64,000 bases of DNA from Candidatus Limnocylindria bacterium (GCA_050692055.1 JBOGTC010000155.1:11798-75797), one strand, 5' to 3'. Counted from the stretch's first letter, positions 1,592 to 63,758 are shown. Notes: generated from the sequence alone by a model not told the origin. Translations and numbers: made by a program.

Positions 1592-2167
1592 GCCCTCCCA
1601 GCCCCTCGGCGGCTCCTGCGCCTTCCACTCGTCGCGAAGCAGGCCCATGACGTGCACGTCGTGGTGCTCGGCGCGCGCGAAGTGGGCGCGGCGCAGCGTA
1701 CCCTCGTGGACGAAGCCGGCCTTCTCATAGGATCGACGGCCCCGCTCGTTGCCGGCGTAGACGTGGAGCTGAATGCGCTCCAGGCGAAGCTCGCCGAAGC
1801 CGAAGTCGCAGATCGCGCGCAGCGCATCGGTTCCGTAGCCCTTGCCCCACTCGTCCTTCTCGCCGATCGCGATCCCGAACTCGGCGCTCCCGTTCTCGAG
1901 GTCGAGGCCATGGAGGCCGATGGTGCCGATGGCGTGGCCGTCAGCCAGCAGGCAGATGACGAAGAGGTAATCGGTCTTGCCCTGGTTGGCGAGCATGCGG
2001 TCGAACCAGCCTTCCTCCGCTGCCTGGCTCATCGGCGCGCGCATGGCGAGATTGCGCAGCACGTCGGCATCGTTGAACCAGCGCACGAAGCTCGGCACAT
2101 CGTCGCGCTCGGCCGGGCGCAGATAGACGTGCTCGCCGCGGATGATCGGCGTTCGGCTGTCGTTCAT
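1586..2167 (-). CDS. GNAT family N-acetyltransferase (RimJ/RimL-like)
   Basis: 193-aa ORF with GNAT core motifs (IGEKDEWGKGYGTDALRAI, RSYEKAGF). Confidence 0.85.
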   Translation of the reverse strand: MNDSRTPIIRGEHVYLRPAERDDVPSFVRWFNDADVLRNLAMRAPMSQAAEEGWFDRMLANQGKTDYLFVICLLADGHAIGTIGLHGLDLENGSAEFGIAIGEKDEWGKGYGTDALRAICDFGFGELRLERIQLHVYAGNERGRRSYEKAGFVHEGTLRRAHFARAEHHDVHVMGLLRDEWKAQEPPRGWEGD

Positions 2168-2228
2168 CGGTCCATCCGCTAGGCTTCGAAGCTCCCGAGC
2201 CCGAGTCTACCAAGGAGGACCGATACCG

Positions 2229-2672
2229 ATGGCCGCCGTCCGTACCGCAACCGTCACCTGGTCCGGCGACCTTGCCACTGGCAGCGGCACTGCCAGCGCC
2301 GGCACCAGCGGGCTCTTCACCGATCTGCCCGTCTCGTGGGCGTCGCGCACCGAGGCGCCCGGTGGCCGAACCTCGCCTGAGGAGCTGTTGGCCGCCGCCC
2401 ACGCCTCGTGCTATGCCATGGCGCTGTCCGGCGGCCTGGCTCGCGCCGGCACGCCGCCCGAGCACCTCCACGTCGAGGCGGAGGTGACCTTCGACAAGGT
2501 CGGCGATGCGTGGCGCGTGGTCTCCTCGCGGCTGATCGTGCTCGGCAGGGTTCCGGGCGCCACGCACGATGGCTTCTCCGCCGCCGCCGAGACGGCCAAG
2601 GACGGCTGCCCGATCTCCCAGGCCCTGCGTGGCAACGTCGAGCTCTCCGTGGAGCCAACCCTCGAGGAGTAG
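2229..2672 (+). CDS. osmC: OsmC family peroxiredoxin
   Basis: In-frame ATG at 2229 preceded by AAGGAGG. OsmC/Ohr-type Cys pair present (HASCYAM and KDGCPIS). Confidence 0.85.
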   Translation: MAAVRTATVTWSGDLATGSGTASAGTSGLFTDLPVSWASRTEAPGGRTSPEELLAAAHASCYAMALSGGLARAGTPPEHLHVEAEVTFDKVGDAWRVVSSRLIVLGRVPGATHDGFSAAAETAKDGCPISQALRGNVELSVEPTLEE

Positions 2673-2674
2673 GT

Positions 2675-4264
2675 TCAGCGGATGGCGTCGAGGATCTCGG
2701 GGGCGAGGCCGGCGTAGCGCTCGAGGAACTCCACGCGCTCGCGCTTGAAGCGTTCCACCCACGCACGGTACGCATCCAGGCGGCCGGTCCGCTCGTAGAG
2801 GCGCCTTGGCTGAAGCTTCTCCGGATCCGATACGCCGGGGACCGCTGATGCGACCTCGTAGCCGAAGTCGGGATCGCCCTCCCAGGTGATCGTCCCTTCG
2901 GCGATGGCCTCCACGATGGCGCCCGAATCCTCGATCGCGATCTTTTTCGAGGCATCGTCCTCATCGGTCCCGCCGACGCGGCCGGTGTTGAGCAGATAGA
3001 CCTCGAAATCGGTTGAGGCCATGAGCTCCAGGAAGCGGTTGGCCTGCATCTCGTCGCGCAGCGGGAAGAACGGGTTCGTCCCGGGCACGCGCAGCGCCTT
3101 GCCCTCCTCGGCGGCGCCGCCGGCCGAGGTGCCCTGCGTCTCGCCGAGCATGAAGTAGGCGGCCGCCTGCTCCGGCGCCAGGCGTGCGACGCCGGGGATG
3201 ATGTTGTCGTTGCGATTCAGGATCAGCAGGTAATCGACCGGGCCGATCTCGCGCGGGTCGCGCCAGATGCCCAGCGACTCCATGGGAAACGTCGCGCGGC
3301 CGTTCTTGGTGTACGAGGTGTCGAAGAAGTCGACATCGCCGCCGGCCTTGGCCTGCGAGACGTTCTCGAGGTAGGCGTCCGGCTTGACGACCGCGCCGTG
3401 GATCGCCGGCTCGTGCCGTGGATCGAGCCCGAACGTCTTGGCGAAGCAGCCGTTTTCGGTCCCGACCACGTGGCCGCCGGGGAAGAGGCCGATGAAATCG
3501 TCCTGCACCGGCTGCGAGTCGTTCTGTCGGGTAAAGGTCGTGGTGGTCTTGCCCGTGCCCGAGAGGCCGATGATGAGCATCGTCTTCTCGCCGCCGTCGG
3601 TCGGGATCACCTTGCAGCCGGCGTGCATGGCGAGGCCGCCCGCGGCATACACGCGCTCGTTCCACATCCGCAAGCCGCCCTTCTTGGACTCGCCGAAGTA
3701 ATCGGAGTTGAAGACGCGGCTGATGCCGGCCTCCAGGTCGACCGCGATGAGTCGCTCGTCGGGATAGCCGGGCATCGGCAGGTTGGGCGTGTAGATCATC
3801 ACCAGCTCCGGCTCCCACTCCTCGCCGGCCGAGTCGGGCGGGAAGTACAGGTGGCGCTGCATACCGGCGATGTTGGCGTTGGCCTCCTCGATGTACAGGC
3901 GCGCCCGCGCCCGATACTTCGGGTCGTTGCCGATGTACCCGTCCACCACGACCATTGGCTGCCGCGCGATGTGCTCGTCCTGCAGGCCGGCCACGCGCTC
4001 GTACTCGTCGCGCCTGATGGACTTGCCGGTGGTGATCGACGGGTCGTCGGTGACGAGATAGGTCGAGCCCGCGGACCGGCTGGTCGCGCGGGTCTGGACG
4101 TTGTAGTTGCCGAAGCTGGTGCGCCGCGCCTGCGGCATGCGACTGGTCAGCTCCTGCAGCTCCTCGGCGGAGGGATTGAATCGGACCGATGCGCCTGTGG
4201 CCAGGCGCTCTCCCTTCGGACCAAGGGGCGCAGCCGCTGCTGGCGGGTCGGCGAGCATGCTCAT
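2675..4264 (-). CDS. pckA: Phosphoenolpyruvate carboxykinase (ATP)
   Basis: P-loop GLSGTGKTT and overall ATP-PEPCK sequence. Start set at ATG 4264, with AAGGAG 8 nt upstream. The Arg-rich upstream extension in the track is rejected. Confidence 0.9.
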   Translation of the reverse strand: MSMLADPPAAAAPLGPKGERLATGASVRFNPSAEELQELTSRMPQARRTSFGNYNVQTRATSRSAGSTYLVTDDPSITTGKSIRRDEYERVAGLQDEHIARQPMVVVDGYIGNDPKYRARARLYIEEANANIAGMQRHLYFPPDSAGEEWEPELVMIYTPNLPMPGYPDERLIAVDLEAGISRVFNSDYFGESKKGGLRMWNERVYAAGGLAMHAGCKVIPTDGGEKTMLIIGLSGTGKTTTTFTRQNDSQPVQDDFIGLFPGGHVVGTENGCFAKTFGLDPRHEPAIHGAVVKPDAYLENVSQAKAGGDVDFFDTSYTKNGRATFPMESLGIWRDPREIGPVDYLLILNRNDNIIPGVARLAPEQAAAYFMLGETQGTSAGGAAEEGKALRVPGTNPFFPLRDEMQANRFLELMASTDFEVYLLNTGRVGGTDEDDASKKIAIEDSGAIVEAIAEGTITWEGDPDFGYEVASAVPGVSDPEKLQPRRLYERTGRLDAYRAWVERFKRERVEFLERYAGLAPEILDAIR

Positions 4265-4381
4265 GACGGCTGGATCTCCTTTGCTCGGGGCGGGTCGGGC
4301 GGAGCGAAGCCGGTGCCGGGCGGGCGCCGGAACGCGAATGTTCACCCAGATCGTACCAAGATCCGCTCCGCGAGCGGCCGA

Positions 4382-4986: not shown

Positions 4987-6099
4987 TCAGCCGCCGATGC
5001 CGGTGAGTGCCCACAGGTCGCCGAACCGCGCCGCGCCATCCCTGCCGCCGAAGAGCAGCAGCCGGCCGCGGGCGGCGTCGCGAATGAGCTCGGCGCCCGC
5101 CCGCCCAGCCGGACCTTCGCCGGCGACCTCCATCGCGATCGCGCCGTCCGACCCGTCGTCGAAGCGCCACAGGTCGGCAAGGTATCCCTCTTCGAGGTCC
5201 TGTCCTCCGAACACGACGGTGGCGCCGTCCAGCCGCGTCCTCGCGTACAGGTTGCGATCCGGCGGCAGCGTGCCCTCGCGCCTGGTCCATGCCCCGTCCT
5301 GCAGCGCCCACAGGTCGCCGAGCGCCGTCACCCCGGTCGTCTGGCCGGCATACAGGGCCAGTCTTCCGTCATCGGTCCACCAGCAGCCGTGGAGGCAACG
5401 ATCGACCGGACGGCCGCCGTCGGCGGGCGTCTCATCGGTCCAGGTGCCGGACGTGAAGTCGTAGGCGACCGTGTCGGAGAACCGCCCCTGGTCCGACGTG
5501 AAGCCGTGGCTGATCCAGAGCCGTCCGTCGGTGCCGATGTCCGCGCAGCTTCCGTAGCGCTGGGCGGGCACGGCGCCGGCCGCCGGAAGCTCGGTCCAGG
5601 CATTCGTCTCGGGCGCGTACGACCACAGGTCATTGAAGAAGGTGGTCCCGGCCTGCCCGAAGACGATGACCAGGCCGATGCCCTCCACCCACTCCGCCTC
5701 GTGCCCGAAGCGCGCCGCCGGCGCCGGCGCCGGAGCCGGCAGCTCCGACCAGGCATCCGCGGCCAGGTCGTAGGCCCACAGGTCGCCGAAGACGGTGTCG
5801 CCGTCGCGCCCGCCGAACAGGTAGGCGATCTCCCCAGTGCCGTCGACCGTCCACGTGTGATCCTCGCGCGCCGTCGGGCCGCCCGCGACCGTGAGCTGCG
5901 CCCACGACGCGGGCTCCGGCGCCGCCTCAACGGTGGGTGAAGGACCCGGCGTGCCGCTGGCGGTCGCCATCGGCTGCTCGGTGGAGGTCGGGCTCGGGCG
6001 CTCGGTGCCGCCCGTCATCGGCGCAGACGGCGAGGCGCCCGGCTGGCTGCAGGCGGCCAGGAGGAGGAGGAGGACGAGAAGCGCAACGCGGGCCGGCAT
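4987..6099 (-). CDS. Kelch-repeat lipoprotein
   Basis: 370-aa ORF with lipobox LLLAAC. Repeated Kelch-like units (FGG.. / DLW.YD......W.EL). Confidence 0.7.
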   Translation of the reverse strand: MPARVALLVLLLLLAACSQPGASPSAPMTGGTERPSPTSTEQPMATASGTPGPSPTVEAAPEPASWAQLTVAGGPTAREDHTWTVDGTGEIAYLFGGRDGDTVFGDLWAYDLAADAWSELPAPAPAPAARFGHEAEWVEGIGLVIVFGQAGTTFFNDLWSYAPETNAWTELPAAGAVPAQRYGSCADIGTDGRLWISHGFTSDQGRFSDTVAYDFTSGTWTDETPADGGRPVDRCLHGCWWTDDGRLALYAGQTTGVTALGDLWALQDGAWTRREGTLPPDRNLYARTRLDGATVVFGGQDLEEGYLADLWRFDDGSDGAIAMEVAGEGPAGRAGAELIRDAARGRLLLFGGRDGAARFGDLWALTGIGG

Positions 6100-6165
6100 G
6101 TGACCCGCACCATAGCAATGGCCCCATGACGGACCGATGACGGCCGGCTCCCCGGCCGCAACGTG

Positions 6166-6975
6166 TCAGCCGCGTGCCTCGGGCGCGAGATGCCGATACA
6201 GCTCGGGGCGCCTGTTGCTCAGGGCAGGCTCCTGGTCGCGCTCGGCGGCGCCCTGGCGCAGGTCGACCTCGGCGATGATCGTCCCGGTGGCGTCACTGAC
6301 GGCCTCAGCCACGACCTCGCCGCGAGGGTTGACGATCATGCTGCGGCCGCACCACGTGGTCACCCCGTCGTCTCCGACCAGGTTCGCGGCAGCCACGAAC
6401 ACCTGGTTGTCCTGCGCGCGGGCCCGAGTGCGCAGCTCGAGGAGATACTCGTAGCCCACCGGCACGGCCGATGGAATCGCGACCAGCTCGGCGCCACGCA
6501 GCGCGAGCTCTGTGAAGACCTCGGGGAACGCGTGCTCGAAGCAGATCGCCAGGCCAACCCGCATCGCTCCCAGCCCGGCGACGACGAGCTCCTCCCCAGA
6601 CGCGAAGTAGCGACGCTCGGCCGGGTACAGGTGCGTCTTGCGGTAGCGTCCCACGAGGTGCCCTTCAGCTCCGATCACGAGGGCCGTGTCATAGACCTGC
6701 CCGTCGGCGCGCTCGAGGATCGTGCCGATGACGCCGACCCCTGCGTCGGCCGCGGCGCGGGAGAGACGGCGCACCGTCGGGCCATCCGGGATCGGCTCTG
6801 CCATTGCCGCGTGCTCGAAGCCCTCGCGGCGGTATCCGGTGCTGAACAGCTCGGGGAAGATGACCAGCTCGGCGCGGCCGGCAAGCGAGTGGATCATGGC
6901 TTCCGCATCCGCCAGGTTCGCCTGCAGCTCGCCCACGCGCGGCGCGGTCTGCGCCACCGCCACCCTGGCGCTCAC
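6166..6975 (-). CDS. Carbon-nitrogen hydrolase (nitrilase superfamily)
   Basis: Glu-Lys-Cys triad contexts present: FPELF, RKTHLY, LAICFE. Confidence 0.85.
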   Translation of the reverse strand: MSARVAVAQTAPRVGELQANLADAEAMIHSLAGRAELVIFPELFSTGYRREGFEHAAMAEPIPDGPTVRRLSRAAADAGVGVIGTILERADGQVYDTALVIGAEGHLVGRYRKTHLYPAERRYFASGEELVVAGLGAMRVGLAICFEHAFPEVFTELALRGAELVAIPSAVPVGYEYLLELRTRARAQDNQVFVAAANLVGDDGVTTWCGRSMIVNPRGEVVAEAVSDATGTIIAEVDLRQGAAERDQEPALSNRRPELYRHLAPEARG

Positions 6976-8129
6976 GCGATCGTCTCCGCGGCCTCGCCGA
7001 TCGCCTCGCCGCTGGAGCGGCGGATGACCAGCTCGGTGGGCAGGACGATGCGCGCCGTCTCGACGCGCCGTCCTTCGATGCGATCGATCACCATCCGAGC
7101 CGCGAGCCTGCCGAGCTGCTCGCGCGGCTGGCGGACCGCCGTCAGCGGGACAGACAGCACGGCGGCCGGCGGGTCGTCATCGAAGCTCGCGACGGCGAGC
7201 TGGTCCGGCACGCGCAGCCCGAGCTGCTCGGCGGCCTCGAGCACGTCGGCCGCAAGGTAGTCGTGCAGCGTGAAGACGGCGGTCGGTTGCTGGCGCTCGA
7301 GGAAGCGGGCGATGCGCGTGGCATGGCCCTTCACGCCGGCGGTGACGTCCCGCGGCCAGCGGATCGTGACCGCGAGCTCCGCGCACACCAGGCGGTCGTC
7401 GGCCGGGATGCCGTGCGCGAGCAACGCCTGCTCGTATCCCTGGAGCCGCTCGGCGACGGAGGTCGTGGTCAGGTTGTCGGTGCTGACGAAGGCGATGCGC
7501 CGATGGCCGAGCTGCGCCAGATGGGATACCGCCGCGTAGGCGCCGCCCACGTTGTCCGGCTGGACGGCGTCAATCGCCAGCCCGACCAGGTGCCGGTCGA
7601 TGAGGACGACCGGGAAGCCTGTCTCGACGAGATGGGCGAAGAGCGACGGATCCGGCTCGTAGTCCACCGGGTACACGACCAGGCCGCTCGCGCCCTCGTC
7701 CAGGATGCGATGGATGCGTCCTGCCTGCTGCTCGCGCGTCGATCCGCCACTGCCAACGAGCATGGCGTATCCGCACGAGTGCAGCTCATCCTCGAGCCAG
7801 CCGAGAAGATCCGGCACGTAGGGCTGGGCCACCGATGGGACCACCACCCCGACCACGCGTCGGCGGGCCTCGGGCCGGTTCGGGGATCCGTGCGTCACGA
7901 AGTTGCCGCGGCCCGGAACGGCCTCGATCAGCCCGTCGTCTCGCAGGGCGCGCAGCGCCTGGCGCAGCGTGCCGCGGCTCACCCCGAGCCGGGTGGCGAG
8001 ATCGGTCTCGGCCGGCAGGCGCGTGCCCGGGCCGTACCGGCCCTGCTCGATGGCCGCCGTCAACGCGCTCGCGATGCGGCGGTGGGCGGGAAGGCGCTCG
8101 GACGGCGGCGCAGGATCCCCGGTGCTCAT
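6972..8129 (-). CDS. AraR-like chimeric regulator (GntR-type wHTH plus LacI/PBP1 sugar-binding domain)
   Basis: N-terminus TDLATRLGVSRGTLRQALRALRDDGLI (GntR HTH) followed by a LacI-type periplasmic-binding fold. Start at ATG 8129. Divergent from the sugar ABC operon. Confidence 0.8.
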   Translation of the reverse strand: MSTGDPAPPSERLPAHRRIASALTAAIEQGRYGPGTRLPAETDLATRLGVSRGTLRQALRALRDDGLIEAVPGRGNFVTHGSPNRPEARRRVVGVVVPSVAQPYVPDLLGWLEDELHSCGYAMLVGSGGSTREQQAGRIHRILDEGASGLVVYPVDYEPDPSLFAHLVETGFPVVLIDRHLVGLAIDAVQPDNVGGAYAAVSHLAQLGHRRIAFVSTDNLTTTSVAERLQGYEQALLAHGIPADDRLVCAELAVTIRWPRDVTAGVKGHATRIARFLERQQPTAVFTLHDYLAADVLEAAEQLGLRVPDQLAVASFDDDPPAAVLSVPLTAVRQPREQLGRLAARMVIDRIEGRRVETARIVLPTELVIRRSSGEAIGEAAETIA

Positions 8130-8135
8130 GGGCGC

Positions 8136-8141
8136 AGTATA
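8136..8141 (-). promoter_or_regulatory. -10 box TATACT, 6 nt upstream of the ATG of the AraR-like regulator (leaderless layout)
   Basis: Minus strand reads cTATACTgcgcccATG. Confidence 0.4.
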
Positions 8142-8212
8142 GACCGCGCTGGCCGAGAGGCAAGCATGGTTGCTTCCTGTGTTCGCGTCCCTCTGGCATC
8201 CGGCCTCGACAG

Positions 8213-8236
8213 GCGGTATAGTCCGGCCTATACTGC
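8213..8236. promoter_or_regulatory. Inverted repeat GCgGTATAG-N6-CTATACtGC (candidate GntR-type operator) overlapping the TATACT -10 box of the ABC operon
   Basis: GTATAG at 8216-8221 and CTATAC at 8228-8233 are perfect complements. TATACT at 8229-8234 lies 41 nt upstream of ATG 8276. Confidence 0.4.
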
Positions 8237-8275
8237 CGTTCCAAGAGAACACCGCTGCGCATAGGGAGGGCGATC

Positions 8276-9589
8276 ATGGCTCGTGGCTCGACGTCCCGGC
8301 GGCCGTTGCAGGCACTGTCGCTGGCTCTGTTGCTCATCGTGACGGCTTGCACCGGGGGCAATGGCACCAGTCCTCCGCCGGCCGACGGAGTGGATGGCGA
8401 CGTATCGGGCAGCATCAGGGTGGTGCACGCCTGGGCCGGCGCCGAGGGGGAGGCCTTCCAGGCCGTGGTAGATGGATTCACCGACGCCAACGACGTCGAG
8501 GTCGACCTGGTCCAGATTCCGTTCGACGAGCTCAACTCGCAGATGGTCCAGCAGTTCGCCGCGGGCACGCCGCCCGATGTCGTCAGCACGCTGCCCGGCC
8601 TGATTCACTCGCTGGCGGCGCAGGACCTCCTGATGCCGATCGACGACGTGTGGGATCGGTGGGTCGCAGACGGCGAGTACTCGGAGGCCTTCCGCACGAT
8701 CGCGTCGCACGAGGGCACGGCCTACGGCGTCTTCTTCAAGGGCAACATCAACGGGCTGATCTGGCATCGCAATGACACGCTCGACGAGCTCGGCATCAGC
8801 CAGCCGGGCAGCTGGGAGGAGTTCACCGCCGCGCTCGACGACATCCAGGCCGATGGCACATACCAGCCCTTCGCGGTGGGCGCGGCAGACGTCTGGGTGC
8901 CGACGCAGTGGAGCGATGCGTTCGTGGCCAAGGTTGCCGGGGCCGAGGTGTTCAACGGCCTGATCGACGGCTCGGTGAGCTGGGACGACCCCGCGGTCGT
9001 CGACGCCTTCACCCAGTTCAGCGACTTCATCCAGGCCTACTGGCCGGACGACGCGCTCAACGTTGGCTTCACCGACGCGAACTGCGCCTGGGCCAGCGAG
9101 GGCCAGGCGGTCTACCAGAACCAGGGCGCCTTCGTCAACCTGACCACGCCGGCCAACTGCGGCGAGGAGCTTGACCCCGAGAGCGACTTCACGTTCTTCG
9201 AGATGCCTGCTCCGAACCCTGATTTCGGCGACGTGCGCTTCGTGTCCGGCGATCTCTTCAGCGTGGCACAGGCGACCGACAACCCGGATGCGGCCACGGC
9301 GTTCGTGGCCTACCTGGGCTCCGCCGAGGCGCAGGCGATCTGGGCCGAGCGCGGGGGGTTCATCGCGCCGAACGCCACGACCGATACCTCGGTCTATCCC
9401 ACGGAGAACGACCGCAAGGCGGCCGAGCTGTTCACCGCGGGCACCGCGGTGTACGACCTCGACGATGCCATCGGCGGCGAGATCCAGTCGGTGGAGCGGG
9501 AGGAGCTCGCGAACCTGATCGGCTCGGGCGACGTGGATGCCTTCATCCAGGCCATGGTCGACGTGACCGAACGGGTGCGCGGCGGCTGA
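8276..9589 (+). CDS. ABC transporter extracellular sugar-binding protein (family 1)
   Basis: 437-aa ORF. Lipoprotein signal (LLLIVTAC). SD GGGAGGG upstream. Followed by two permease genes. Confidence 0.85.
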   Translation: MARGSTSRRPLQALSLALLLIVTACTGGNGTSPPPADGVDGDVSGSIRVVHAWAGAEGEAFQAVVDGFTDANDVEVDLVQIPFDELNSQMVQQFAAGTPPDVVSTLPGLIHSLAAQDLLMPIDDVWDRWVADGEYSEAFRTIASHEGTAYGVFFKGNINGLIWHRNDTLDELGISQPGSWEEFTAALDDIQADGTYQPFAVGAADVWVPTQWSDAFVAKVAGAEVFNGLIDGSVSWDDPAVVDAFTQFSDFIQAYWPDDALNVGFTDANCAWASEGQAVYQNQGAFVNLTTPANCGEELDPESDFTFFEMPAPNPDFGDVRFVSGDLFSVAQATDNPDAATAFVAYLGSAEAQAIWAERGGFIAPNATTDTSVYPTENDRKAAELFTAGTAVYDLDDAIGGEIQSVEREELANLIGSGDVDAFIQAMVDVTERVRGG

Positions 9590-9611
9590 GCCGACTCGGC
9601 ATCATCCGTCC

Positions 9612-10607
9612 ATGGCCGAGACCGTGGCGGTCGAGCGGAGGCAGGGAGGCGGAGGACGGCGGATCGCCTATCTCTTCGTCCTCCCCGCCGCGCTCGTCTT
9701 CGCGCTGTTCTACCTGTGGCCGGCGTTCAACACGATCGTGTCGAGCCTCTTCACGTGGAGCATCCTGGCACCGTGGCAGGTGGCGGATCCGGGCTCATGG
9801 CGCTTCGCCGGCCTGGACAACTACGCCGATGTCCTGACCGACGGCCGGTTCTGGAATGCGGCGCTGAACACCGCCGTCTGGCTGGTCCTGTTTCCGGTGA
9901 TCGCCACGTTCCTGTCGCTGGCCCTGGCGATCCTGGTGTGGGAGGTGGGACATGCCGCGCGCGCCTACCGCACCGTGTTCGTGCTGCCGATGACGGTCTC
10001 GCTCACCGCGGCCGGGGTGCTGTGGGTCCTCGTCTACAACCCTGACTTCGGCGTCCTGCCTGCCGCGCTGCGCGCAGTGGGCCTCGAGGGCGCCACCCTC
10101 GATGCGGGACCCCTCCAGCTGCGCCTCACCGACTGGCTCTCCGATCCGGGATCGCTGGCTCTGGGACCCGTGACCATCGACCTCGTCAACCTCTCGGCGA
10201 TCATGCCTGCCATCTGGGCGCTGACCGGGTTCGGCGTCATCAGCTTCACCGCGGGGCTCACCGCGATCAGCCCCGAGCTCATCGAGGCGGCCCGGGTGGA
10301 GGGTGCCAACCGTTTCCAGGTCGCACGCCACGTGGTGGTGCCGCAGCTGCGCGGCGCCATGGTGATCGTGGCGGTGGTCTTCATCATCTACGCGCTGCGC
10401 ACGTTCGACGTGGTGTGGGTCACCACGCAGGGCGGCCCCGGCACGGACTCGGAGGTCGTGGCAATCCTGCTCTGGCGCGAGGCGCTCGCCTTCTTCGACA
10501 CACCATCGGCGGGGCATGCGACGGCCATCGCGGTCCTGCTCAGCGCCGTGATGGTGATCGGAGCCTACCCGTACCTGCGCCGGCTGCTGCGGGAGGCGCC
10601 GGGATGA
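9612..10607 (+). CDS. Carbohydrate ABC transporter permease (MalF-like)
   Basis: 331-aa polytopic membrane ORF within an ABC operon. Confidence 0.85.
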   Translation: MAETVAVERRQGGGGRRIAYLFVLPAALVFALFYLWPAFNTIVSSLFTWSILAPWQVADPGSWRFAGLDNYADVLTDGRFWNAALNTAVWLVLFPVIATFLSLALAILVWEVGHAARAYRTVFVLPMTVSLTAAGVLWVLVYNPDFGVLPAALRAVGLEGATLDAGPLQLRLTDWLSDPGSLALGPVTIDLVNLSAIMPAIWALTGFGVISFTAGLTAISPELIEAARVEGANRFQVARHVVVPQLRGAMVIVAVVFIIYALRTFDVVWVTTQGGPGTDSEVVAILLWREALAFFDTPSAGHATAIAVLLSAVMVIGAYPYLRRLLREAPG

Positions 10608-11449
10608 GCGGACGGCTGCGCGCGGTCGGATCGATCTGGTGGATCTATCTGCTGCTGAGCGTCCTGTCGATCCTGTGGCTGGTGCCGGTCATGACCGTAA
10701 TGATGACTGCCGTGCGGCCGCTCGGCGAGATCCGCGGCGGGTGGTGGGACATCGCCGGCGCGAGCTTCACGCTCGATAACTTCGTGGGCGCCTGGTCGGA
10801 GGCCGATCTGGGCTCAAAGGCGATCAACAGCCTGATCATCACCGGCTTCAGCGTTGCCTCGACGGTGGGCGTGGGGTCGCTGGCGGCATACGCGTTCGTG
10901 CGGCTGCGCTTCACCGGCCGCGGGCTGCTCTATTTCCTGCTCATCAGCACCATGATCGTGCCGGTCCAGATCATCCTCATCCCGCTGCTGCCGTGGTTCC
11001 GGACCCTCGGCTTCGCGGAGGGCACCTGGCAGCCGTTCCTGGGGATGGTCCTGGTTCACACCGCCTTCGGCCTGGGCTGGGCGGTCTTCATGATGGGCGC
11101 CTTCATGGCCGATGTCCCGAAGGAGCTGACCGAGGCCGGCCAGATCGACGGCGCCGGGCACTTCGAGATCTTCCGCCGCATCGTGCTGCCGCTGGCCCTG
11201 CCGGGGATCGTCAGCTTCGCGATCATCGACTTCGTGTTCGTCTGGAACGACCTGCTGCTGGGACTGACCCTGCTCGATGCCGACCACGCGCCGCTGACGG
11301 TGGGCATCGCCAACCTGCAGTCGGCTCACCTGGCGCAGCAGGACGTGATCAGCGCCGGTGCGCTGCTGGCCATCCTTCCGCCCCTCGTGCTGTTCGTTGC
11401 GCTGAACCGCTACTACGTGCGCGGCCTCTTCTCTGGCGGCGTCAAGTAA
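10604..11449 (+). CDS. Carbohydrate ABC transporter permease (MalG-like)
   Basis: Start at ATG 10604 (MSGRLRAVGSIWW...), with ATGA overlap on the upstream permease stop. Polytopic membrane protein. Confidence 0.85.
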   Translation: MSGRLRAVGSIWWIYLLLSVLSILWLVPVMTVMMTAVRPLGEIRGGWWDIAGASFTLDNFVGAWSEADLGSKAINSLIITGFSVASTVGVGSLAAYAFVRLRFTGRGLLYFLLISTMIVPVQIILIPLLPWFRTLGFAEGTWQPFLGMVLVHTAFGLGWAVFMMGAFMADVPKELTEAGQIDGAGHFEIFRRIVLPLALPGIVSFAIIDFVFVWNDLLLGLTLLDADHAPLTVGIANLQSAHLAQQDVISAGALLAILPPLVLFVALNRYYVRGLFSGGVK

Positions 11450-11498
11450 GCGGTCCCCGGCCCCCGAGCAGTGGCTGCTTCCCGTAATGCTCGCCTGC

Positions 11499-11639
11499 TG
11501 CAACTTATCCGAGCACCCGGCGCGTCGCGATCCACTCTCCGAGGCTCTCCGAGGCCGCAGCTTCGGTTAGTGCTCCGCTACGGGCACATTGATCCGATGT
11601 GACCGCCGCCGCATGCCGTCCCTACTCCGATAAGTTGCA
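11499..11639. repeat. Intergenic inverted-repeat element A (arms TGCAACTTATCcGAG / CTCcGATAAGTTGCA)
   Basis: 15-bp arms with one mismatch at 11499-11513 and 11625-11639. Internal CCGAGGC short repeats. Confidence 0.6.
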
Positions 11640-11732
11640 CACGCGCGGCAAGCGCCACCAGGCGAGCGAAGCCGGGAGAGGCCGCAGGCATGTTGACCCC
11701 ACTCCGCGCAGAGTGGGCTTCCCGCGGCGTCG

Positions 11733-11738
11733 TATAGT
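11733..11738 (+). promoter_or_regulatory. -10 box TATAGT, 7 nt upstream of the histidine kinase ATG (leaderless layout)
   Basis: Sequence cgTATAGTggaatccATG. Confidence 0.4.
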
Positions 11739-11745
11739 GGAATCC

Positions 11746-13419: not shown

Positions 13420-13428
13420 GGGCGAGGA

Positions 13429-13504
13429 TGGAGCGGGAGACGAGGCTCGAACTCGCGACATCCACCTTGGGAAGGTGGCGCTCTACCAACTGAGCTACTC
13501 CCGC
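13429..13504 (-). tRNA. tRNA-Gly (anticodon CCC), CCA encoded
   Basis: Minus strand reads GCGGGAGTAGCTCAGTTGGTAGAGCGCCACCTTCCCAAGGTGGATGTCGCGAGTTCGAGCCTCGTCTCCCGCTCCA, which folds as a cloverleaf. Anticodon loop is TTCCCAA. Confidence 0.9.
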
Positions 13505-13563
13505 CCGCGAGCCGGTCCGATCATAGCGCGGCACCGTCGCCGCGTCACTCGGACACGATGCGC

Positions 13564-25709: not shown

Positions 25710-25809
25710 GGTGGTTGGAATCTGGCACGCTCGCCGCACCGCTCGCCGCACGGTTCGCGGCATCGTTCTTCCCGGCACCGCTCGCGTCACACGCATCGGA
25801 GGCTCGGGC

Positions 25810-44351: not shown

Positions 44352-44479
44352 CGGTCCGTTGGCCTCTGCGTTACGGGCAAGGTACGCGCGATGCGTTGCG
44401 CTGGCGCGAGGATTACGCACGCGACCTGCGGCGTGACTGCGGCGATGACACCGGATGCGGCCGTGTGGCCCATCGGCGC

Positions 44480-53395: not shown

Positions 53396-55726
53396 TCAGT
53401 TGCGGAGCGGCTTGCCGGTCTTGAGGGTGTGACGGATCCGGTCGCGGGTCAGCCGCTCGCCGAGCAGGCGCAGGAAGGCCTCGCGCTCGAGGTCAAGGAG
53501 GTGCCCTTCGGACACGAGCGTTCCCTCGGCCACGTCCCCGCCGCTCATCACGCGAGCCAGCTCGAGCACGATCTTGCGGTCATGCTCGCTGATCTGGCGC
53601 GCGGCGAGCTGGTTGTAGCTGAGCGCCTCGGCGGCGGCGATGCCACGGCGGCCGAGCACCGGGATGCGGATCTCTCCCGGCGGTCGGTAGCCGGTATCGG
53701 ACAGCTCGCGCGCGGCGCGGGCGGCATCGGACCACTGGCGATCGGGGTCGGCGGTGATCTGGTCGCAGTCGCGCAGGATCATGAGCTCGCGGGCCTCCGG
53801 CGCGCCCATCGCCACGCGGGCGCTGGCCACGGTCGTGAACACGTGCTGGAAGATCGGGAAGAGATCACCGCGGGCGCCGTCCGGCAAGCGCTCGGCGGCG
53901 CGGCGGGCCATGGCGGTCGAGCCGCCGGCGGCCGGGATGAGGCCCACGCCCACCTCCACCAGGCCGATGTACGTCTCGGCCAGCGCCTGCGCCCGATCGG
54001 CCGCTAGCACGATCTCGGTGCCGCCGCCCAGGGTGCGGCCGCGAGGCGCCGCGACGACCGGCACGGGGGCATAGCGGATCGCCTGCATCGCGCCCTGGAA
54101 GCGTCGGATGGCGCGATCGAGCTCGTCCCATTCGCCGTCCTCGGCCTCGATCAGCAGCAGAGCCAGGTTCGCGCCCACGCTGAAGTCGGTCGCCTGGGTG
54201 CCGATCACCAGCCCGTCGTAGCGCTCGGCGGCCAGCTCCACGCCGCGCCCGATCATGGCGATGGTGTCGATGCCGATGACGTTGAGCTTGCCGTGCAGCT
54301 CCAGCCCCAGGATCTTCTCCGGCAGCTCCAGGACCGATGCCGACGCGTTGGACGGCAAGTCCGCCTGACGCCCGCGCTCTCTCGCCGCGCCGATGTCGAG
54401 CCAGCCGGGGCGTGGATCGACCTGCTCCAGCGTATCGGTCCGGAAGCTCCACGCAGAGCCGTCGCGATAGAGCACGCCCTCACCTTCGTTGACCTTGACG
54501 TGGAGCAGTGGAGGCTCCCCGCCGCCCAGCGGCACCAGGCGCGCCGTCGTCTTGGCGTCCAGGGCGTCGATGATCTCGAACGGCCCCAGCTCCCAGGCGA
54601 AGCCCCAGCGCATGGCGCGATCGACGTCGGTGACGGTGTCGGCGATCTGCGGGCCAACTGTCGCGGCGTACTCGATCCCGGCCGCGAAGAGACGGCTCAG
54701 GAACTCGCCCGCCCGGTCCTCGGCACCCAGCAGCAGGTTCAGGCGCCTGCCGAGGTCGCTTTCGTTGCGCGCCATCTCGACGGCGCCGGACTGCATGCGC
54801 CGACGCGGCCGATACTCGCCGCTCTCCAGGTCGAGGGCGAGGATCTCGCCGCTCTCCTTGCGGAAGAACCCGGCGCCAGTCTTCTCGCCGAGCGCGCTGC
54901 GCTCCACGAGCCCGCGCATGACCGGCGGCACGGCGAATGCCTCCCGCTCGGCCGGATCGGTCAATGCCTCGGCGCAGTGGTCCGCCACCGCGGTGGCCAC
55001 GTCGATGCCCACCAGGTCGAGCGTGCGGAAGGTCGCGCTCTTCGGCCGCCCGATGAGCGGGCCGGTCAGGTCGTCGACCTCGTCCGGGCCCAGGCCGAGC
55101 TGCTGGGCGGTGCGAAGCGCGACGAGCAGCCCATGCACGCCGAGCCGGTTGGCAATAAAGGCGGGCGTGTCCCTGGCCATGACGGTGCCCTTGCCCAGGT
55201 GGCGCGAGGCGAACTCGGCCAGCGCCGCGACGGCAGCGCCATCGGTCTCGGCCAGGGGGATCAGCTCGAGCAGGCGCGTGTAGCGGGGCGGGTTGAAGAA
55301 GTGGGTGCCGAAGAAGCGCGACTGGAAGGCGGGGGAGCGGCCGTCGGCGAGCGCCGCGATCGACAGGCCGGAGGTGTTCGTGGTCACGATCGGCGATCCT
55401 GCCGCCGCTCCCAGGGCGGCATCCACGCGGGCCAGCAGGTCGCGCTTGGCTTCGAGCTGCTCCACGATCGCCTCGAGCACCCAGTCCGCGCCCGTCACCG
55501 CGTCCTCGAGCTCGTCGAGGCCACCGGTGCCGACGTTGCGGGCATCCGATGCGAGGTACAGCGGTGCCGGGCGCAGCTGCGCCACGCGCTCGAGGCCGCG
55601 CCGCGCCGCGCCTGCGTCCACGTCGAGGAGGCGAACGCGGGATCCGGCGCCGGCCAGCAGACAGGCGATCTGAGCGCCCATGGTGCCTGCGCCGAGCACG
55701 ACGACGTTCGGATAGCGCGGCGTCAT
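53396..55726 (-). CDS. Bifunctional 3-hydroxyacyl-CoA dehydrogenase / enoyl-CoA hydratase (dehydrogenase domain N-terminal, FadN-like order)
   Basis: Start at ATG 55726 (MTPRYPNVVVLGAGTMGAQIA), with ATGA overlap on the TetR stop. C-terminal crotonase-like part. Confidence 0.85.
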   Translation of the reverse strand: MTPRYPNVVVLGAGTMGAQIACLLAGAGSRVRLLDVDAGAARRGLERVAQLRPAPLYLASDARNVGTGGLDELEDAVTGADWVLEAIVEQLEAKRDLLARVDAALGAAAGSPIVTTNTSGLSIAALADGRSPAFQSRFFGTHFFNPPRYTRLLELIPLAETDGAAVAALAEFASRHLGKGTVMARDTPAFIANRLGVHGLLVALRTAQQLGLGPDEVDDLTGPLIGRPKSATFRTLDLVGIDVATAVADHCAEALTDPAEREAFAVPPVMRGLVERSALGEKTGAGFFRKESGEILALDLESGEYRPRRRMQSGAVEMARNESDLGRRLNLLLGAEDRAGEFLSRLFAAGIEYAATVGPQIADTVTDVDRAMRWGFAWELGPFEIIDALDAKTTARLVPLGGGEPPLLHVKVNEGEGVLYRDGSAWSFRTDTLEQVDPRPGWLDIGAARERGRQADLPSNASASVLELPEKILGLELHGKLNVIGIDTIAMIGRGVELAAERYDGLVIGTQATDFSVGANLALLLIEAEDGEWDELDRAIRRFQGAMQAIRYAPVPVVAAPRGRTLGGGTEIVLAADRAQALAETYIGLVEVGVGLIPAAGGSTAMARRAAERLPDGARGDLFPIFQHVFTTVASARVAMGAPEARELMILRDCDQITADPDRQWSDAARAARELSDTGYRPPGEIRIPVLGRRGIAAAEALSYNQLAARQISEHDRKIVLELARVMSGGDVAEGTLVSEGHLLDLEREAFLRLLGERLTRDRIRHTLKTGKPLRN

Positions 55727-57991: not shown

Positions 57992-58423
57992 TCAGGCGTG
58001 CGCGCGCTGTCGCGTCACGGCATGCGGCCGCAGGTACATCGCCCGATGGCCGTGCGACTCGGGGACGAAGCCGAGCGCGGCAAAGAACTCGACGGCGGCC
58101 GGGGTGCTGACGAGGGCGACCAGGCGCCGGTCGGCGCATCGGTCCAGTGCCAGGCGCACGAGCGCCGAGCCGATGCCGGCCCGCTGTCGATCGGGCCGGA
58201 CGATGACGTCCCACAGCGTGGCGTGCAGGCCACCGTCATCGAGCAGCCGCGCTACGCCGATCAGCTTGCCGGCCGCCGTGCGCGCGGCGAACCAGGTACA
58301 GGAGCGCGCGATGGCATCCAGGCGCCAGCGCTCACGCCGCGGCCAGTCGACCCAGGCATAGGCGGCGTTGACCTCGTCGGGCGTGAGGCCGGCGTCGGCC
58401 TCGTACCGGACGTCATCGTGCAC
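57992..58423 (-). CDS. GNAT family N-acetyltransferase
   Basis: GNAT core VIVRPDRQRAGIGSALV. GTG start at 58423, placed after the gltA stop. Confidence 0.7.
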   Translation of the reverse strand: MHDDVRYEADAGLTPDEVNAAYAWVDWPRRERWRLDAIARSCTWFAARTAAGKLIGVARLLDDGGLHATLWDVIVRPDRQRAGIGSALVRLALDRCADRRLVALVSTPAAVEFFAALGFVPESHGHRAMYLRPHAVTRQRAHA

Positions 58424-59739: not shown

Positions 59740-60731
59740 CCCAGCAGGTCCATCACCGCGTCACGCTCCTCGAGGAGCTCGCTCAGGGTGGCGTCGACTT
59801 TGCCCTGCGCCCAGGCGCCGTGCTCGATGCCCGGCACGATCTCGACCGCGCCGGGGGCCGATGCGCGCAGCGGGTAGCCGAAGACGATCCCCTCCGGCAC
59901 GTCGTACCCACCGTCGGCGGGGGCGGGGACGGCGGACGAGAAGACTTCGCCGCTCGGCTGCGTGATGTTGCGCACGGTATCGATCACCGCGTTCGCCGCG
60001 CTTGCGGCGCTCGACTGTCCGCGCGCCTTGATGATGGCCGCGCCGCGCTGCTGGACCGTGCTGATGAACTCACCCTGCAGCCAGGCCTCGTCGTCGATCA
60101 CGTCGGTTGCCGGCCGGCCGCCGATCGTGGCGTGCCACGCATCGGGGAATTGCGAGGAGGAGTGGTTGCCCCAGATGGCCAGGCCCTGCACATCACTCAC
60201 CGCGACGCCGGACTTCGCCGCCAGCTGCGATCTGCCGCGGTTCTCGTCGAGCATGGTCATGGCGAACCATCGGTCCTTCGGCATGGCGTGACGCTCGGCT
60301 GCCGTCGAGCCGATCAGGGCGTTCGTGTTGCACGGGTTGCCCACCACCAGGACGCGACAGTCGTCTGCCGCGTTGTGCGCGATGGCCTCGCCCTGCTCGG
60401 TGAAGATGCTGCCGTTGATGCTGAGCAGGTCCTTGCGCTCCATCCCCTCCCTGCGCGGCACGGCGCCGACCAGCAGCGCCCAGTTGGCGTCGGCGAAGGC
60501 CTCCTCCGTGTCGGATGTGCACAGCACTCGACTCAGCAGCGGAAATGCGCAATCGTCGAGCTCCATGCGCACGCCATCCAGAGCGGGCAGCGCGGCTTCG
60601 AGCTCAAGCAGCTGGAGGTCGACCTTCGTGGCTGGTCCGAACATCTGTCCCGAGGCGATGCGAAAGAGGAGGGCGTAGCCGATCTGCCCGGCGGCGCCGG
60701 TGACGGCCACCCTGACGTGCGGGTCGGGCAT
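59736..60731 (-). CDS. mdh: Malate dehydrogenase (LDH-like MDH family 2)
   Basis: [21 protein letters not shown]. Start at ATG 60731 with SD AGGAGAGAG. ATGA overlap with the gltA start. Confidence 0.9.
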
Positions 60732-60794: not shown

Positions 60795-61298
60795 TCAGCG
60801 TGAGCGCGACCAGTCCTCGACCGCGGATGCCATGGAGGCGAAGGCGATGCGGGGCAGCCAGTCGAGGATCGCCGAGCGGGTGACCCAGGCGTGTTCGCTG
60901 GACTCGGCGTCCAGCGTGACCGGTGCATCCGGGGTCACCTGCCGGGCGCGATACACCGCCGTGACGACATTCGAGGCCGGCGAGTGATAGACACCGGTCA
61001 GGGCGAGCAGCTCGACGGCGACGCCTGCCTCCTCCCGCGTCTCGCGCAGCGCCCCCTGTTCGAACGACTCGCCCGGATCCAGGTAGCCGGCCGGCAGATC
61101 CCAGGCGCCGATGCCCGGCTCGACGGCGCGCTTCAGAAGCAGGACCGATGGCTCAGCGTCGCCATCGGCCTGGCGCTCGAGCAGCACCGCCGCCGCCGGC
61201 TTGGGGTTGGCATGCCAGCGCCATCCGCATCGGTCGCAGAGGAGAGGCTCCTCGTGAGGGTTTGAGCAATGCGGGCAGGCCGGGACGTGGAGGCTCAC
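60795..61298 (-). CDS. NUDIX hydrolase with an N-terminal zinc ribbon
   Basis: CPHC...CDRC, then the Nudix box GESFEQGALRETREEAG. Confidence 0.8.
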   Translation of the reverse strand: MSLHVPACPHCSNPHEEPLLCDRCGWRWHANPKPAAAVLLERQADGDAEPSVLLLKRAVEPGIGAWDLPAGYLDPGESFEQGALRETREEAGVAVELLALTGVYHSPASNVVTAVYRARQVTPDAPVTLDAESSEHAWVTRSAILDWLPRIAFASMASAVEDWSRSR

Positions 61299-61670: not shown

Positions 61671-61704
61671 GAGGCGCCGACACGGACCGATGAGGGAACC
61701 ACGA

Positions 61705-62633: not shown

Positions 62634-62776
62634 GGTATTGCGTGGGGTTCCGAGCGGCACCTATGCTCTGGTTGTTCCGAAGGGGCAGCCAACGGCACCA
62701 GAGATTGCATCAACGGTCCGGCGGCGGTTCCTTCGGGACTTTTCTATGTGCGCGGCCCTGTGCCCCGGCCGCGTTG

Positions 62777-62839
62777 CCCCTTCGCGTCGCGTTCCCCCTT
62801 CGCGTCGCGTTTCGCCGCCTCCGTTCCGCCGCCTCCGTT
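62777..62839. repeat. Two short tandem duplications (17-mer CCCCTTCGCGTCGCGTT x2; 11-mer CCGCCTCCGTT x2)
   Basis: Read directly from the sequence at 62777/62795 and 62815/62829. Confidence 0.8.
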
Positions 62840-62860
62840 GCCCCGTCTGCGTTGCATGAG

Positions 62861-62979
62861 ATGGAGGTAACGGCGAAGAAGTGAGCCGAAACGGCCGGAA
62901 GTTCGCCGCCTGTTGCATGAGGTGCAACCAGCGGGGAACGCGGCCCGGAGATCGGCCCTTACTTCCCTGTTACCTCCAT
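62861..62979. repeat. Intergenic inverted-repeat element E (arms ATGGAGGTAAC / GTTACCTCCAT)
   Basis: 11-bp perfect arms 97 bp apart. Internal hairpin GTTGCAtgaggTGCAAC. Confidence 0.6.
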
Positions 62980-63020
62980 GTGGTGAAAATTTCTGCGGAA
63001 GCTCCGGGGTATCCGGGCGG

Positions 63021-63758
63021 TCAGGCTTCTCGTCCGAGGTCTCGCTGCAGGCGTCGGACGACCTCGGCCGTCTCATCGTCCGGACCATGGCCGGGTTCGG
63101 AGGCGGGCCCGGCGAAGGTACCGAACTGGCGATCACCTGCGTCGCCCAGCCCCGGCACGATGTACCCGCGCTCGTTCAGGTGGGAGTCGACCGCCGCCAC
63201 GTGAATGTCGACGTCCGGGTGCGCAGCCGAGAGGGTGGCGATCCCCTCCGGCGCGGCGATGAGCGACACCTGCTTCACCCGCGCGGCGCCCCATGCTTTG
63301 AGAATGTCGACGGTCGCGGCGGCCGAACCGCCGGTGGCCAGCATCGGGTCGAGGATGAGGCACACCTGGACCGTCGCCGCGTCGGGCAGCTTGTTGTAGT
63401 ACTCGACCGGCTTGAGCGTCCGCTCGTCGCGGTACAGGCCGATGTGCCACACCTCGGCCGTCGGCAGTAGCTCGAGCATGGCATCGACCATCCCCAGGCC
63501 GGCGCGCAGGATCGGGATCAGGCCCACGCGGGGCTCGAGCACGGCGCCGTCCATCGGCTCCAGCGGAGTCTCGATCGGCGTAGGCTGGGTGGCAAGGTCG
63601 GCCATCGCCTCGTAGCCGAGCAGCCAGGTCAGCTCGCGGACGAGCTCGCGAAACGTCTTGGGCTCGGTGCCCTTGTCGCGCAGCAGCGACAGCTTGTGCG
63701 CCAGCAGCGGATGGCGGCTGACGTGGACCGATGTCGGGAGGGCGGGCGCGTCTGGCAT
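63021..63758 (-). CDS. upp: Uracil phosphoribosyltransferase
   Basis: PRPP-binding [12 protein letters not shown] and [12 protein letters not shown]. Has a short C-terminal extension. Confidence 0.9.

Follow-up and report, generated by a model that had tools for sequence, protein, structure and literature searches.

Lineage-specific hyper-abundant DNA words are a known kind of phenomenon in bacteria. The DNA uptake sequences of Neisseriaceae (DUS) and the uptake signal sequences of Pasteurellaceae (USS) are short (9–12 nt), non-palindromic and sharply specific, with roughly one copy per kb on both strands, no replication polarity, and copies both within genes (in several frames) and between them. 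They are common to a family- to class-level clade, show lineage dialects and are scarce in recently acquired DNA. The highly iterated palindrome HIP1 of cyanobacteria (GCGATCGC) is hyper-abundant in the coding and non-coding DNA of one clade, with variants in some lineages. Chi (read by RecBCD/AddAB), the FtsK-orienting polar sequences (KOPS) and the SpoIIIE recognition sequences (SRS) are non-palindromic, over-represented and lineage-specific 5–8-mers that are read by DNA-translocating machines and are co-oriented with replication. Here we describe a further word, GGACCGATG, in a 64-kb stretch of DNA (the window) from a metagenome-assembled genome (MAG) of Candidatus Limnocylindria (Chloroflexota), an uncultured soil bacterium. 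Eight proteins encoded in the window are identical to NCBI entries labelled Candidatus Limnocylindria bacterium, which come from a 76-kb MAG contig. New here are the sequence of the word, its host phylum and part of its character: it is no palindrome, makes no terminator hairpins and lacks positional conservation. The literature searched contains no mention of this word or of any hyper-abundant oligonucleotide in Limnocylindria or other Chloroflexota, and matches to GGACCGATG and GACCGAT in it are limited to primers and unrelated sequences, with the exception of the recognition site of the enzyme TaqII, discussed below.

The word shares with DUS and USS the traits listed above, lineage dialects being a probable one. 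It differs from them in its host, an uncultured lineage of Chloroflexota for which the searched literature holds no report of competence; in the absence of hairpin or terminator pairs, whereas about half of the DUS and USS copies lie in terminators, many as inverted-repeat hairpins (10.1101/2025.10.24.684340); and in the absence of positional conservation at the divergences available. The likeness to HIP1 extends from its abundance, clade restriction and variants to the concentration of one-mismatch deviants at the outer positions (PMC4390886). However, HIP1 is palindromic and contains known methyltransferase sites, its sites are conserved between genomes (PMC5861425), and its excess is 15- to 300-fold; GGACCGATG is non-palindromic, has no known methyltransferase, is not conserved in its sites, and reaches an excess of about 10- to 40-fold. 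Unlike Chi and KOPS/SRS, the word is symmetric within every contig.

Abundance and anatomy of the word

An exact search of both strands of the window, whose G+C content is 70%, recovers 39 copies of GGACCGAT, 24 on the plus strand and 15 on the minus strand. The first-pass annotation had listed 38 copies, all at correct coordinates, and had overlooked one on the minus strand at 58138. The base following GGACCGAT is G in 27 of the 39 copies (yielding GGACCGATG) and A in 8 (yielding GGACCGATA), against an earlier estimate of about 26 and 8; the sibling words AGACCGAT, CGACCGAT and TGACCGAT occur 11, 7 and 15 times. Three null models of rising stringency were compared with the observed count, and none reaches it: 100 dinucleotide-preserving shuffles give 3.85 +/- 2.06 copies with a maximum of 9, an order-3 Markov model gives 4.8, and 300 synonymous-codon shuffles, which hold the protein sequences and codon usage fixed, give 2.3 +/- 1.5 copies in coding territory, where 32 are observed. 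The exact count and all three models confirm the over-representation on both strands reported at first pass, along with its expectation of only a few copies. Among over-represented words of the window, GGACCGAT ranks first of the 8-mers (z = 15.7) and GGACCGATG first of the 9-mers (z = 17.7).

The window holds 0.6 8-mers and 1.1 core 7-mers (GACCGAT, 72 copies) per kb, the abundance of roughly one copy per kb that characterizes DUS and USS; densities of 0.42–1.1 copies per kb fall within the range of those systems. The spacing of the 72 cores is near Poisson, with 8 gaps shorter than 120 bp where 9 are expected and a largest gap of 4.0 kb (P about 0.55). Two copy-free stretches of 7.8 kb singled out earlier (6139–13944 and 23445–31223) are therefore real for the 8-mer but not significant for the 7-mer core; being only marginally unusual, they are weaker evidence than was originally presented.

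The word can be written as [G>T,A]-GACCGAT-[G>A], a strict 7-bp core with a preferred base on each side. One-mismatch variants are in excess solely at position 1 (T 10, A 6) and position 9 (A 8), and internal substitutions are all at background level, which defines the signal as a 7-bp core with two preferred flanking positions. G is rare immediately before GGACCGAT (2 of 39). No information outside the word is found in the 39 aligned window sites, or in 185 non-redundant GACCGATG sites pooled from related loci, which were collected around SufB (one genome per species, L001–L080) and around PEPCK from metagenomes (L082–L161): beyond positions -1 to +9 there is neither a conserved flank nor a hairpin of the kind found in repetitive extragenic palindromes or miniature inverted-repeat transposable elements. 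A repeat finder returns no family or tandem array containing the word in the window, and an Rfam scan of the window returns one tRNA only, identified by ARAGORN as tRNA-Gly(CCC). The reverse complement of GGACCGATG is CATCGGTCC, so the word is not a palindrome of the HIP1 type. Inverted pairs within 40 nt, typical of DUS and USS terminators, are absent from the window, where the nearest such pairs lie 52–70 nt apart. Pairs 25–75 bp apart are in excess, mainly through repeated sampling of one orthologous intergenic pair, in the spacer between an OsmC-like gene and a GNAT gene, and fixed-distance pairing of copies was rejected on that account. Tandem copies 10 bp apart (GGACCGATACGGACCGAT) occur at 33328–33345, immediately 3' of the stop codon of a CysM-like gene, and an ACCGAT-ACCGATG duplication at 2220–2232 resembles them; the two cases suggest that local duplication may contribute a small share of the copies.

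The genes of the window belong to ordinary metabolism: PEPCK, a sugar ABC transporter and a histidine kinase, the suf operon, a ThiS/ThiF/CysM/JAB sulfur-carrier cluster, beta-oxidation genes, citrate synthase and malate dehydrogenase. Gene calls are approximate, derived from the G+C content of third codon positions (GC3) and annotated with Pfam; calls on an identical 10.9-kb contig from a second assembly (L081) were used for some genes. The 39 copies, and one segment poor in the word, are distributed as follows, with sense and antisense given relative to the gene.

2166–2173, minus: GGACCGATG copy whose ATG is the likely start of a GNAT acetyltransferase gene (1586–2167); left arm of a conserved inverted pair
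2217–2224, plus: GGACCGATA copy overlapping the Shine-Dalgarno sequence (AAGGAGGA) of an OsmC-like gene; right arm of the conserved inverted pair
2963–2970, minus: in the PEPCK gene, sense
4183–4190, plus: in the PEPCK gene, antisense
5371–5378, minus: in a Kelch-repeat gene, sense
5434–5441, minus: in the Kelch-repeat gene, sense
6131–6138, plus: intergenic
6163–13419, no strand: word-poor segment with no 8-mer and four 7-mer cores; sugar ABC transporter and GAF/PAS histidine kinase
13945–13952, minus: in a metallo-beta-lactamase-fold gene, sense
14010–14017, plus: in the metallo-beta-lactamase-fold gene, antisense
15087–15094, plus: in a radical-SAM gene, antisense
16909–16916, minus: in an Lgt-family gene, sense
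17912–17919, plus: in an RsgA GTPase gene, antisense
20731–20738, plus: in a pyridine-nucleotide-disulphide oxidoreductase gene, sense
22939–22946, minus: in an open reading frame (ORF) at 22627–23562 with no Pfam family, sense
23082–23089, minus: in ORF 22627–23562, sense
23151–23158, plus: in ORF 22627–23562, antisense
23437–23444, plus: in ORF 22627–23562, antisense
31224–31231, plus: in a ThiF/rhodanese gene, sense
31797–31804, plus: ATG (31803) is the plausible start of a ThiS/CysO-like gene
32081–32088, plus: intergenic, just 3' of the ThiS-like gene
33063–33070, minus: in a pyridoxal phosphate (PLP)-dependent, CysM-like gene, antisense; the sole window site shared at an orthologous position with L005 and L007
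33328–33335, plus: first of the tandem pair, immediately 3' of the CysM-like stop codon
33338–33345, plus: second of the tandem pair
33861–33868, plus: intergenic
36990–36997, plus: near the 5' end of an S8 peptidase/SLH gene, antisense
39194–39201, minus: in an AHSA1/SRPBCC gene, sense
42022–42029, plus: intergenic, 3 nt upstream of the start codon of a minus-strand gene (41743–42018)
44350–44357, minus: ATG (44351) is the plausible start of an MFS transporter gene
45779–45786, plus: in a second PLP-dependent gene, sense
45977–45984, minus: in the second PLP-dependent gene, antisense
50557–50564, plus: in an acyl-CoA dehydrogenase gene, antisense
52490–52497, plus: in a thiolase gene, antisense
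54331–54338, plus: in a 3-hydroxyacyl-CoA dehydrogenase/enoyl-CoA hydratase gene, antisense
54434–54441, minus: in the 3-hydroxyacyl-CoA dehydrogenase/enoyl-CoA hydratase gene, sense
58138–58145, minus: the copy overlooked earlier; in a small acetyltransferase gene (57992–58423, called on L081), sense
60269–60276, minus: in a lactate/malate dehydrogenase gene, sense
61142–61149, plus: in a NUDIX gene, antisense
61684–61691, plus: intergenic, 13–21 nt upstream of the called start (61705) of a 57-aa ORF
63725–63732, plus: in the first 11 codons of a uracil phosphoribosyltransferase gene, antisense

About 80% of the copies lie within ORFs, 19 in the sense and 14 in the antisense orientation relative to transcription, and all six classes of frame and orientation are occupied (sense phases 5/9/5, antisense phases 1/3/10), in keeping with the frame independence first reported. 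Codon choice bends to the word. After a G-ending codon, Thr-Asp is encoded as ACC-GAT in 65% of cases in the window and in 59% in related loci, against 6% in the same context in GC-rich Actinobacteria, and the overall share of GAT among Asp codons is 25%. A codon alignment of 81 PEPCK sequences displays the word at about 20 columns, or about a dozen distinct positions after merging of 3-nt alignment offsets. At a conserved Ile-Ile-Gly-Leu, 21 of the 81 sequences read ATC-GGT-CTG, with the rare GGT replacing GGC, and in a variable loop the peptide itself is changed to Gly-Gly-Thr-Asp-Ala (GGTDA). PEPCK sequences without the word have equal length at these positions, which indicates that copies originate by substitution and rules out an origin by insertion. 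Two other abundant words of the window serve as internal controls. TCGCCTAC (12 copies against 1.8 expected; e.g. 5461, 12110, 29156 and 46735) is always on the coding strand and in a single phase (x-Ala-Tyr), and AGGCCGATG (16 against 2.9) is in antisense phase 2 in 11 of its 15 genic copies (Ile-Gly-Leu); being confined essentially to one frame and strand, both are plain coding effects.

The unequal use of frames by the word itself, with 10 of 14 antisense copies in phase 2, might be taken as the mark of a coding artefact of amino-acid or codon usage, and bare over-representation as that of the core of a decayed mobile element or dispersed repeat. We give these explanations almost no credence. 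The synonymous-codon shuffles and the recruitment of rare codons argue against the former; the latter is contradicted by the unconserved flanks, by the absence of any repeat family, tandem array or Rfam family with the word, and by the origin of copies through substitution. Codon shuffles, pooled flanks and the repeat-family search together refute both. The synonymous-codon shuffles, the rare codons and the lack of a repeat element around the word establish it as a DNA-level signal, as had been proposed at first pass, and not a product of codon usage or protein sequence.

Strand counts of the word are symmetric. The core occurs 40:32 on the two strands of the window, and the per-contig counts of 39 contigs fit a symmetric binomial (chi2 27.9, 39 d.f., p = 0.91). 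In a mixture model, a polarity of 0.65 is worse than 0.5 by 10 log-likelihood units, 0.75 by 41 and 0.9 by 182. The strand-skew check suggested earlier thus yields no skew; a weak negative rank correlation between contig GC skew and strand bias of the word (rho = -0.44, p = 0.04, 22 contigs) is given little weight, since the strand counts show no over-dispersion. Occurrence in both orientations without replication polarity, in and between genes, is the distribution of DUS and USS and lacks the strand bias of Chi and KOPS. Symmetric counts exclude signals of the Chi, KOPS or SRS type, and with them the Chi-like and polar-motif class among the candidates first suggested, barring an unprecedented unpolarised Chi. 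Such a signal would be read on single-stranded DNA by a helicase-nuclease of the AddAB, RecBCD or AdnAB type, switching it from degradation to RecA loading, and selection could favour both orientations if breaks are two-ended, for instance after desiccation. The word, a non-palindromic 7–9-mer, resembles Chi in size and density, is lineage-specific with drifting flanks, could plausibly be selected for density instead of position, and would benefit phages that carry it; a partly Chi-like action has also been suggested for HIP1 (10.1101/2024.09.10.611283). An unpolarised Chi nevertheless appears improbable in view of the contig counts, for which even a 65:35 polarity fits distinctly worse. To our knowledge, every characterised Chi is co-oriented with replication, and the excess of Chi in E. 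coli is smaller than the excess seen here, which also counts against this explanation.

Three side observations concern the surroundings of the copies. The spacer between the ThiS-like and CysM-like genes contains a 60-bp tandem duplication (32116–32235, 75% identity), and the S8 peptidase/SLH gene contains a perfect 30-bp tandem duplication (36610–36669). The cluster of ThiF/rhodanese, ThiS-like, PLP-dependent (CysM-like) and JAB-domain genes (30521–33758) adjoins the suf operon in an arrangement that presumably corresponds to the protein-thiocarboxylate (CysO-type) cysteine pathway of mycobacteria.

Clade restriction and turnover of positions

Comparison with related genomes shows the word to be abundant in Limnocylindria-type loci and at background in distant clades. 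The former carry 2–9 copies of GGACCGAT per 10 kb and 0.45–1.15 copies of GACCGAT per kb, against about 0.2 per 10 kb and about 0.08 per kb in GC-rich Actinobacteria (1.1 Mb). Dehalococcoidia have 0–0.6 copies of GGACCGAT per 10 kb, and metagenomic clades with PEPCK at most 68% identical have 0–0.8 per 10 kb, with GACCGAT at 0.05–0.15 per kb. High core density tracks the clades whose PEPCK is at least about 73% identical to that of the window. Relative to Actinobacteria, the enrichment of the core is about 10-fold clade-wide, and that of the 9-mer is about 20-fold clade-wide and about 40-fold in the window. We regard the observation as solid; independent assemblies reproduce the pattern across the clade.

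The bases preferred at -1 and +1 vary by clade: G or A in one, G or T in another, and two others show no preference for G. The differences at -1 and +1 give chi-square p = 6e-6 and 9e-4, values that are optimistic because orthologous sites are counted repeatedly, and that come from small samples. The word is restricted to one clade, soil Limnocylindria, within which flank preferences are apparently lineage-specific. A separate dialect CTGACCGA considered for L083 was set aside: it is independent of the following T and is probably a Leu-Thr-Asp/Glu coding word. In a word-free sister lineage (L152, WNGF01000372.1; PEPCK 64% identical), the top word of the 21-kb sample is CATGGCCA(G), with 9 copies against 0.7 expected, on both strands; this could be an abundant word of that lineage's own.

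The positions of the word turn over while its density is maintained. Among relatives of the SufB region, at about 76% nucleotide identity, a single window site (33063) is kept, in two relatives, out of about 25 site-by-relative comparisons. All pairwise high-scoring segment pairs among Limnocylindria-type loci were scored for site conservation, with 7-mers of the same composition as a control. GACCGAT sites are conserved at a rate of 0.215 against 0.223 for the control at 70–80% identity, 0.252 against 0.351 at 80–88%, and 0.785 against 0.70 at 88–97%. Conservation is not above the control in the two lower bands, unlike the conserved sites of HIP1, and site-specific selection is left unsupported. 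Lack of site conservation has been regarded as a signature of continual replenishment as opposed to site-specific selection (Xu et al. 2018, PMC5861425), and by this logic the word looks continually replenished.

One explanation that does not call for conserved positions is a binding site for an abundant chromosome-structuring or nucleoid-associated protein, with about one site per kb selected for compaction or domain organisation; a role in chromosome structure was proposed for HIP1 by Xu et al. (PMC5861425). The genome-wide, unpolarised and roughly Poisson distribution agrees with this account, as does the sharp specificity, and selection on density need not conserve positions. The account alone does not explain the drift of flanks between clades or the scarcity of the word in a lineage-specific insert, described below. 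We know of no nucleoid protein that combines a 9-bp non-palindromic specificity with about 1000 sites per Mb, and consider this explanation improbable as well. A protein-binding word had been among the possibilities raised at first pass, as had an uptake sequence, the reading preferred here.

The sole clearly position-conserved occurrence found is the pair in the divergent spacer of the OsmC-like and GNAT genes (2160–2235). The inverted pair ATCGGTCC-N38-44-GGACCGAT is present in at least 12 related lineages (L100, L105, L111, L112, L113, L120, L135, L137, L138, L140, L146 and L157), with one arm overlapping the Shine-Dalgarno sequence of the OsmC-like gene and the other abutting or supplying the GNAT start codon. 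The spacer is conserved throughout, beyond the word itself.

This pair is one argument for reading the word as a translation-initiation or promoter-proximal element, either a part of the ribosome-binding or start region or an operator to which a global regulator would bind. Start codons are provided or adjoined by three or four copies (2166, 31797, 44350 and 42022), and the one at 2217 overlaps a Shine-Dalgarno sequence. The ATG of the word had been proposed as a start codon at three places, of which 31803 and 44351 are plausible and 61690 is not, the called start being at 61705 on the identical contig; 2167 is an additional plausible start codon supplied by the word. Moreover, spacers and the first 15% of ORFs together hold 18 of the 39 copies (about 46%) and make up about 28% of the sequence. 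However, this excess is as expected from weaker constraint near gene starts alone, the OsmC/GNAT spacer is conserved in its entirety and not in the word alone, and more than half of the copies lie deep in genes, in every frame and in both orientations. Such copies largely refute a function in initiation or regulation, which is very improbable as an account of the word.

The word-poor segment at 6163–13419, to which the 8-mer-free stretch at 6139–13944 largely corresponds, is missing from the syntenic region of all of the roughly 70 related loci and abuts the tRNA-Gly(CCC) gene at 13429–13504. Its absence from the related loci and its placement beside a tRNA gene make it a probable lineage-specific insertion into which the word has not spread.

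Candidate forces maintaining the word

To account for these facts, a protein must recognise, with sharp specificity, a non-palindromic word of 9 bp, and a force must act on density, not on particular sites, be strand-symmetric, and co-evolve within one clade. The force must also override a GC3 bias of 88% at hundreds of sites per Mb. This signature is shared by DUS and USS, in which a molecular drive results from biased uptake together with homologous replacement, and by HIP1, and for this reason we rank first, tentatively and at less than even confidence, a lineage-specific DNA tag that is kept abundant by biased transmission, most likely through preferential uptake or recombination in natural transformation. 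By analogy with those systems, a clade-specific sequence-recognising protein would read the word on DNA, and a continuous transmission bias would hold it at about 0.4–1 copy per kb, favouring word-bearing DNA over word-free alleles. The likeliest route would run through natural transformation, with word-bearing DNA preferentially taken up, recombined or both, in the manner of DUS, USS and HIP1. New copies would emerge by point substitution where constraint permits—at synonymous sites, in variable protein loops, at gene starts and in spacers—and old copies would decay, leaving a stable density with shifting positions. Both the recognising protein and the link to transformation are postulated from this likeness.

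The precedents carry weight as a prior. DUS and USS are tied to natural transformation (10.1101/2025.10.24.684340), and HIP1, long without a function, increases natural transformation up to 100-fold in a methylation-dependent manner (10.1101/2024.09.10.611283) and co-varies phylogenetically with DNA-uptake genes (10.64898/2026.06.24.733823). Every known hyper-abundant word without polarity, three in all, is now linked to that process, which supports the transformation-linked tag as a prior. The scarcity of the 8-mer in the probable insertion beside the tRNA gene also supports it.

Several points weigh against this reading. Pfam annotation of the 64-kb window reveals no competence, pilus, methyltransferase or nuclease genes, and no sequence-specific receptor such as a ComP-type minor pilin; a search of the literature on repeats, competence and methylation in Limnocylindria found nothing, and the absence of competence reports is a further count against it. 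The window has no inverted pair inside 40 nt, unlike the terminator hairpins of DUS and USS. Methylation-linked biased repair, or selection on site density, would give identical genomic signatures. Another point comes from viral DNA. A scan of viral contigs for the inverted-pair arrangement gave 120 contigs, of which a few have many additional copies. One (L210, IMGVR_UViG_3300010043_000174) holds 13 cores over 15 kb, of which six lie beyond a collagen-like fibre gene, and encodes a 1273-aa tail fibre and an excisionase-like protein; the other (L230/L282, IMGVR_UViG_3300012179_000240) has 10 cores in 16 kb and encodes phage helicases, a Cas4-type exonuclease and a Sak4-like annealing protein. 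These putative phages carry GACCGAT at 0.5–0.9 per kb, three- to five-fold above the 0.15 of other GC-rich viral contigs, and are possibly phages of Limnocylindria. If so, the force that makes the word reaches phage DNA, which would slightly favour an in-cell bias or a protective role over a pure uptake drive; owing to ascertainment, multiple testing and the collagen-like tail-fibre gene, the result is suggestive only, and the relatives of the L230 phage are too distant to inform on it. Two dense local arrays of the 7-mer, in L179 (5014–5149, about every 33 bp) and in L226 (2003–2151, in alternating orientation at intervals of 17–45 bp), are local repeats unrelated to the genome-wide word.

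An in-cell bias is the essence of the next alternative, in which GACCGAT would be the target of a clade-specific methyltransferase, orphan or Type IIG-like, and methylation-dependent mismatch repair, very-short-patch-type repair or biased gene conversion in heteroduplex would turn near-sites into sites. A model of this form, combining a methyltransferase with biased repair, was proposed for HIP1 by Elhai, who inferred a shorter methylated core from the concentration of deviations at the outer positions (PMC4390886); the word shows the same concentration. The bifunctional Type IIG restriction-methylation enzyme TaqII, of the Thermus family, recognises 5'-GACCGA-3', which is the core without its final T (PMC3280180), so non-palindromic words of this sort can be read by Type IIG enzymes. 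The resemblance to TaqII is a lead only, and the window contains no methyltransferase gene by Pfam annotation. A host genome normally avoids restriction sites or is neutral towards them, whereas GACCGAT is enriched ten-fold here. The absence of positional conservation fits replenishment by biased repair, and the host-like density in the putative phages is what would be expected if the bias acts on all DNA replicating in the cell. However, very-short-patch repair produces a modest rise of its target and depletes one specific T variant, and no single transition variant is strikingly depleted here; an excess of 10- to 40-fold against a strong GC3 bias would require a force acting on all neighbouring words. 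We hold a methyltransferase-driven origin to be unlikely, though it is the main rival of the transformation-linked tag. The effect of HIP1 on transformation is itself methylation-dependent (10.1101/2024.09.10.611283), and, given the HIP1 data, methylation and a transformation tag may be two halves of one mechanism.

Consequences for Limnocylindria

Even if its origin is linked to repair rather than uptake, the word strongly shapes synonymous codon choice in these genomes. With a core about 10-fold denser than in equally GC-rich genomes, it offers an easy means of attributing metagenomic contigs, islands and phages to the clade, and it makes the transformation-linked tag testable: as bait for the reader protein, through long-read methylomes, and through correlation with gene content across MAGs. 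That GGACCGATG is a transformation self tag, enhancing uptake or recombination outside Proteobacteria and Cyanobacteria, is a possibility that we consider less likely than not. If true, Limnocylindria, a widespread uncultured class of soil Chloroflexota, would exchange DNA by natural transformation with sequence-based self-recognition, and the dialects of the word would mark the boundaries of their gene-exchange communities. Few hyper-abundant unpolarised words are known, and each of them—DUS, USS and HIP1—marks the recognition of self-DNA in gene exchange. A fourth example would give a sequence-only handle on horizontal gene flow in a hard-to-study soil group.

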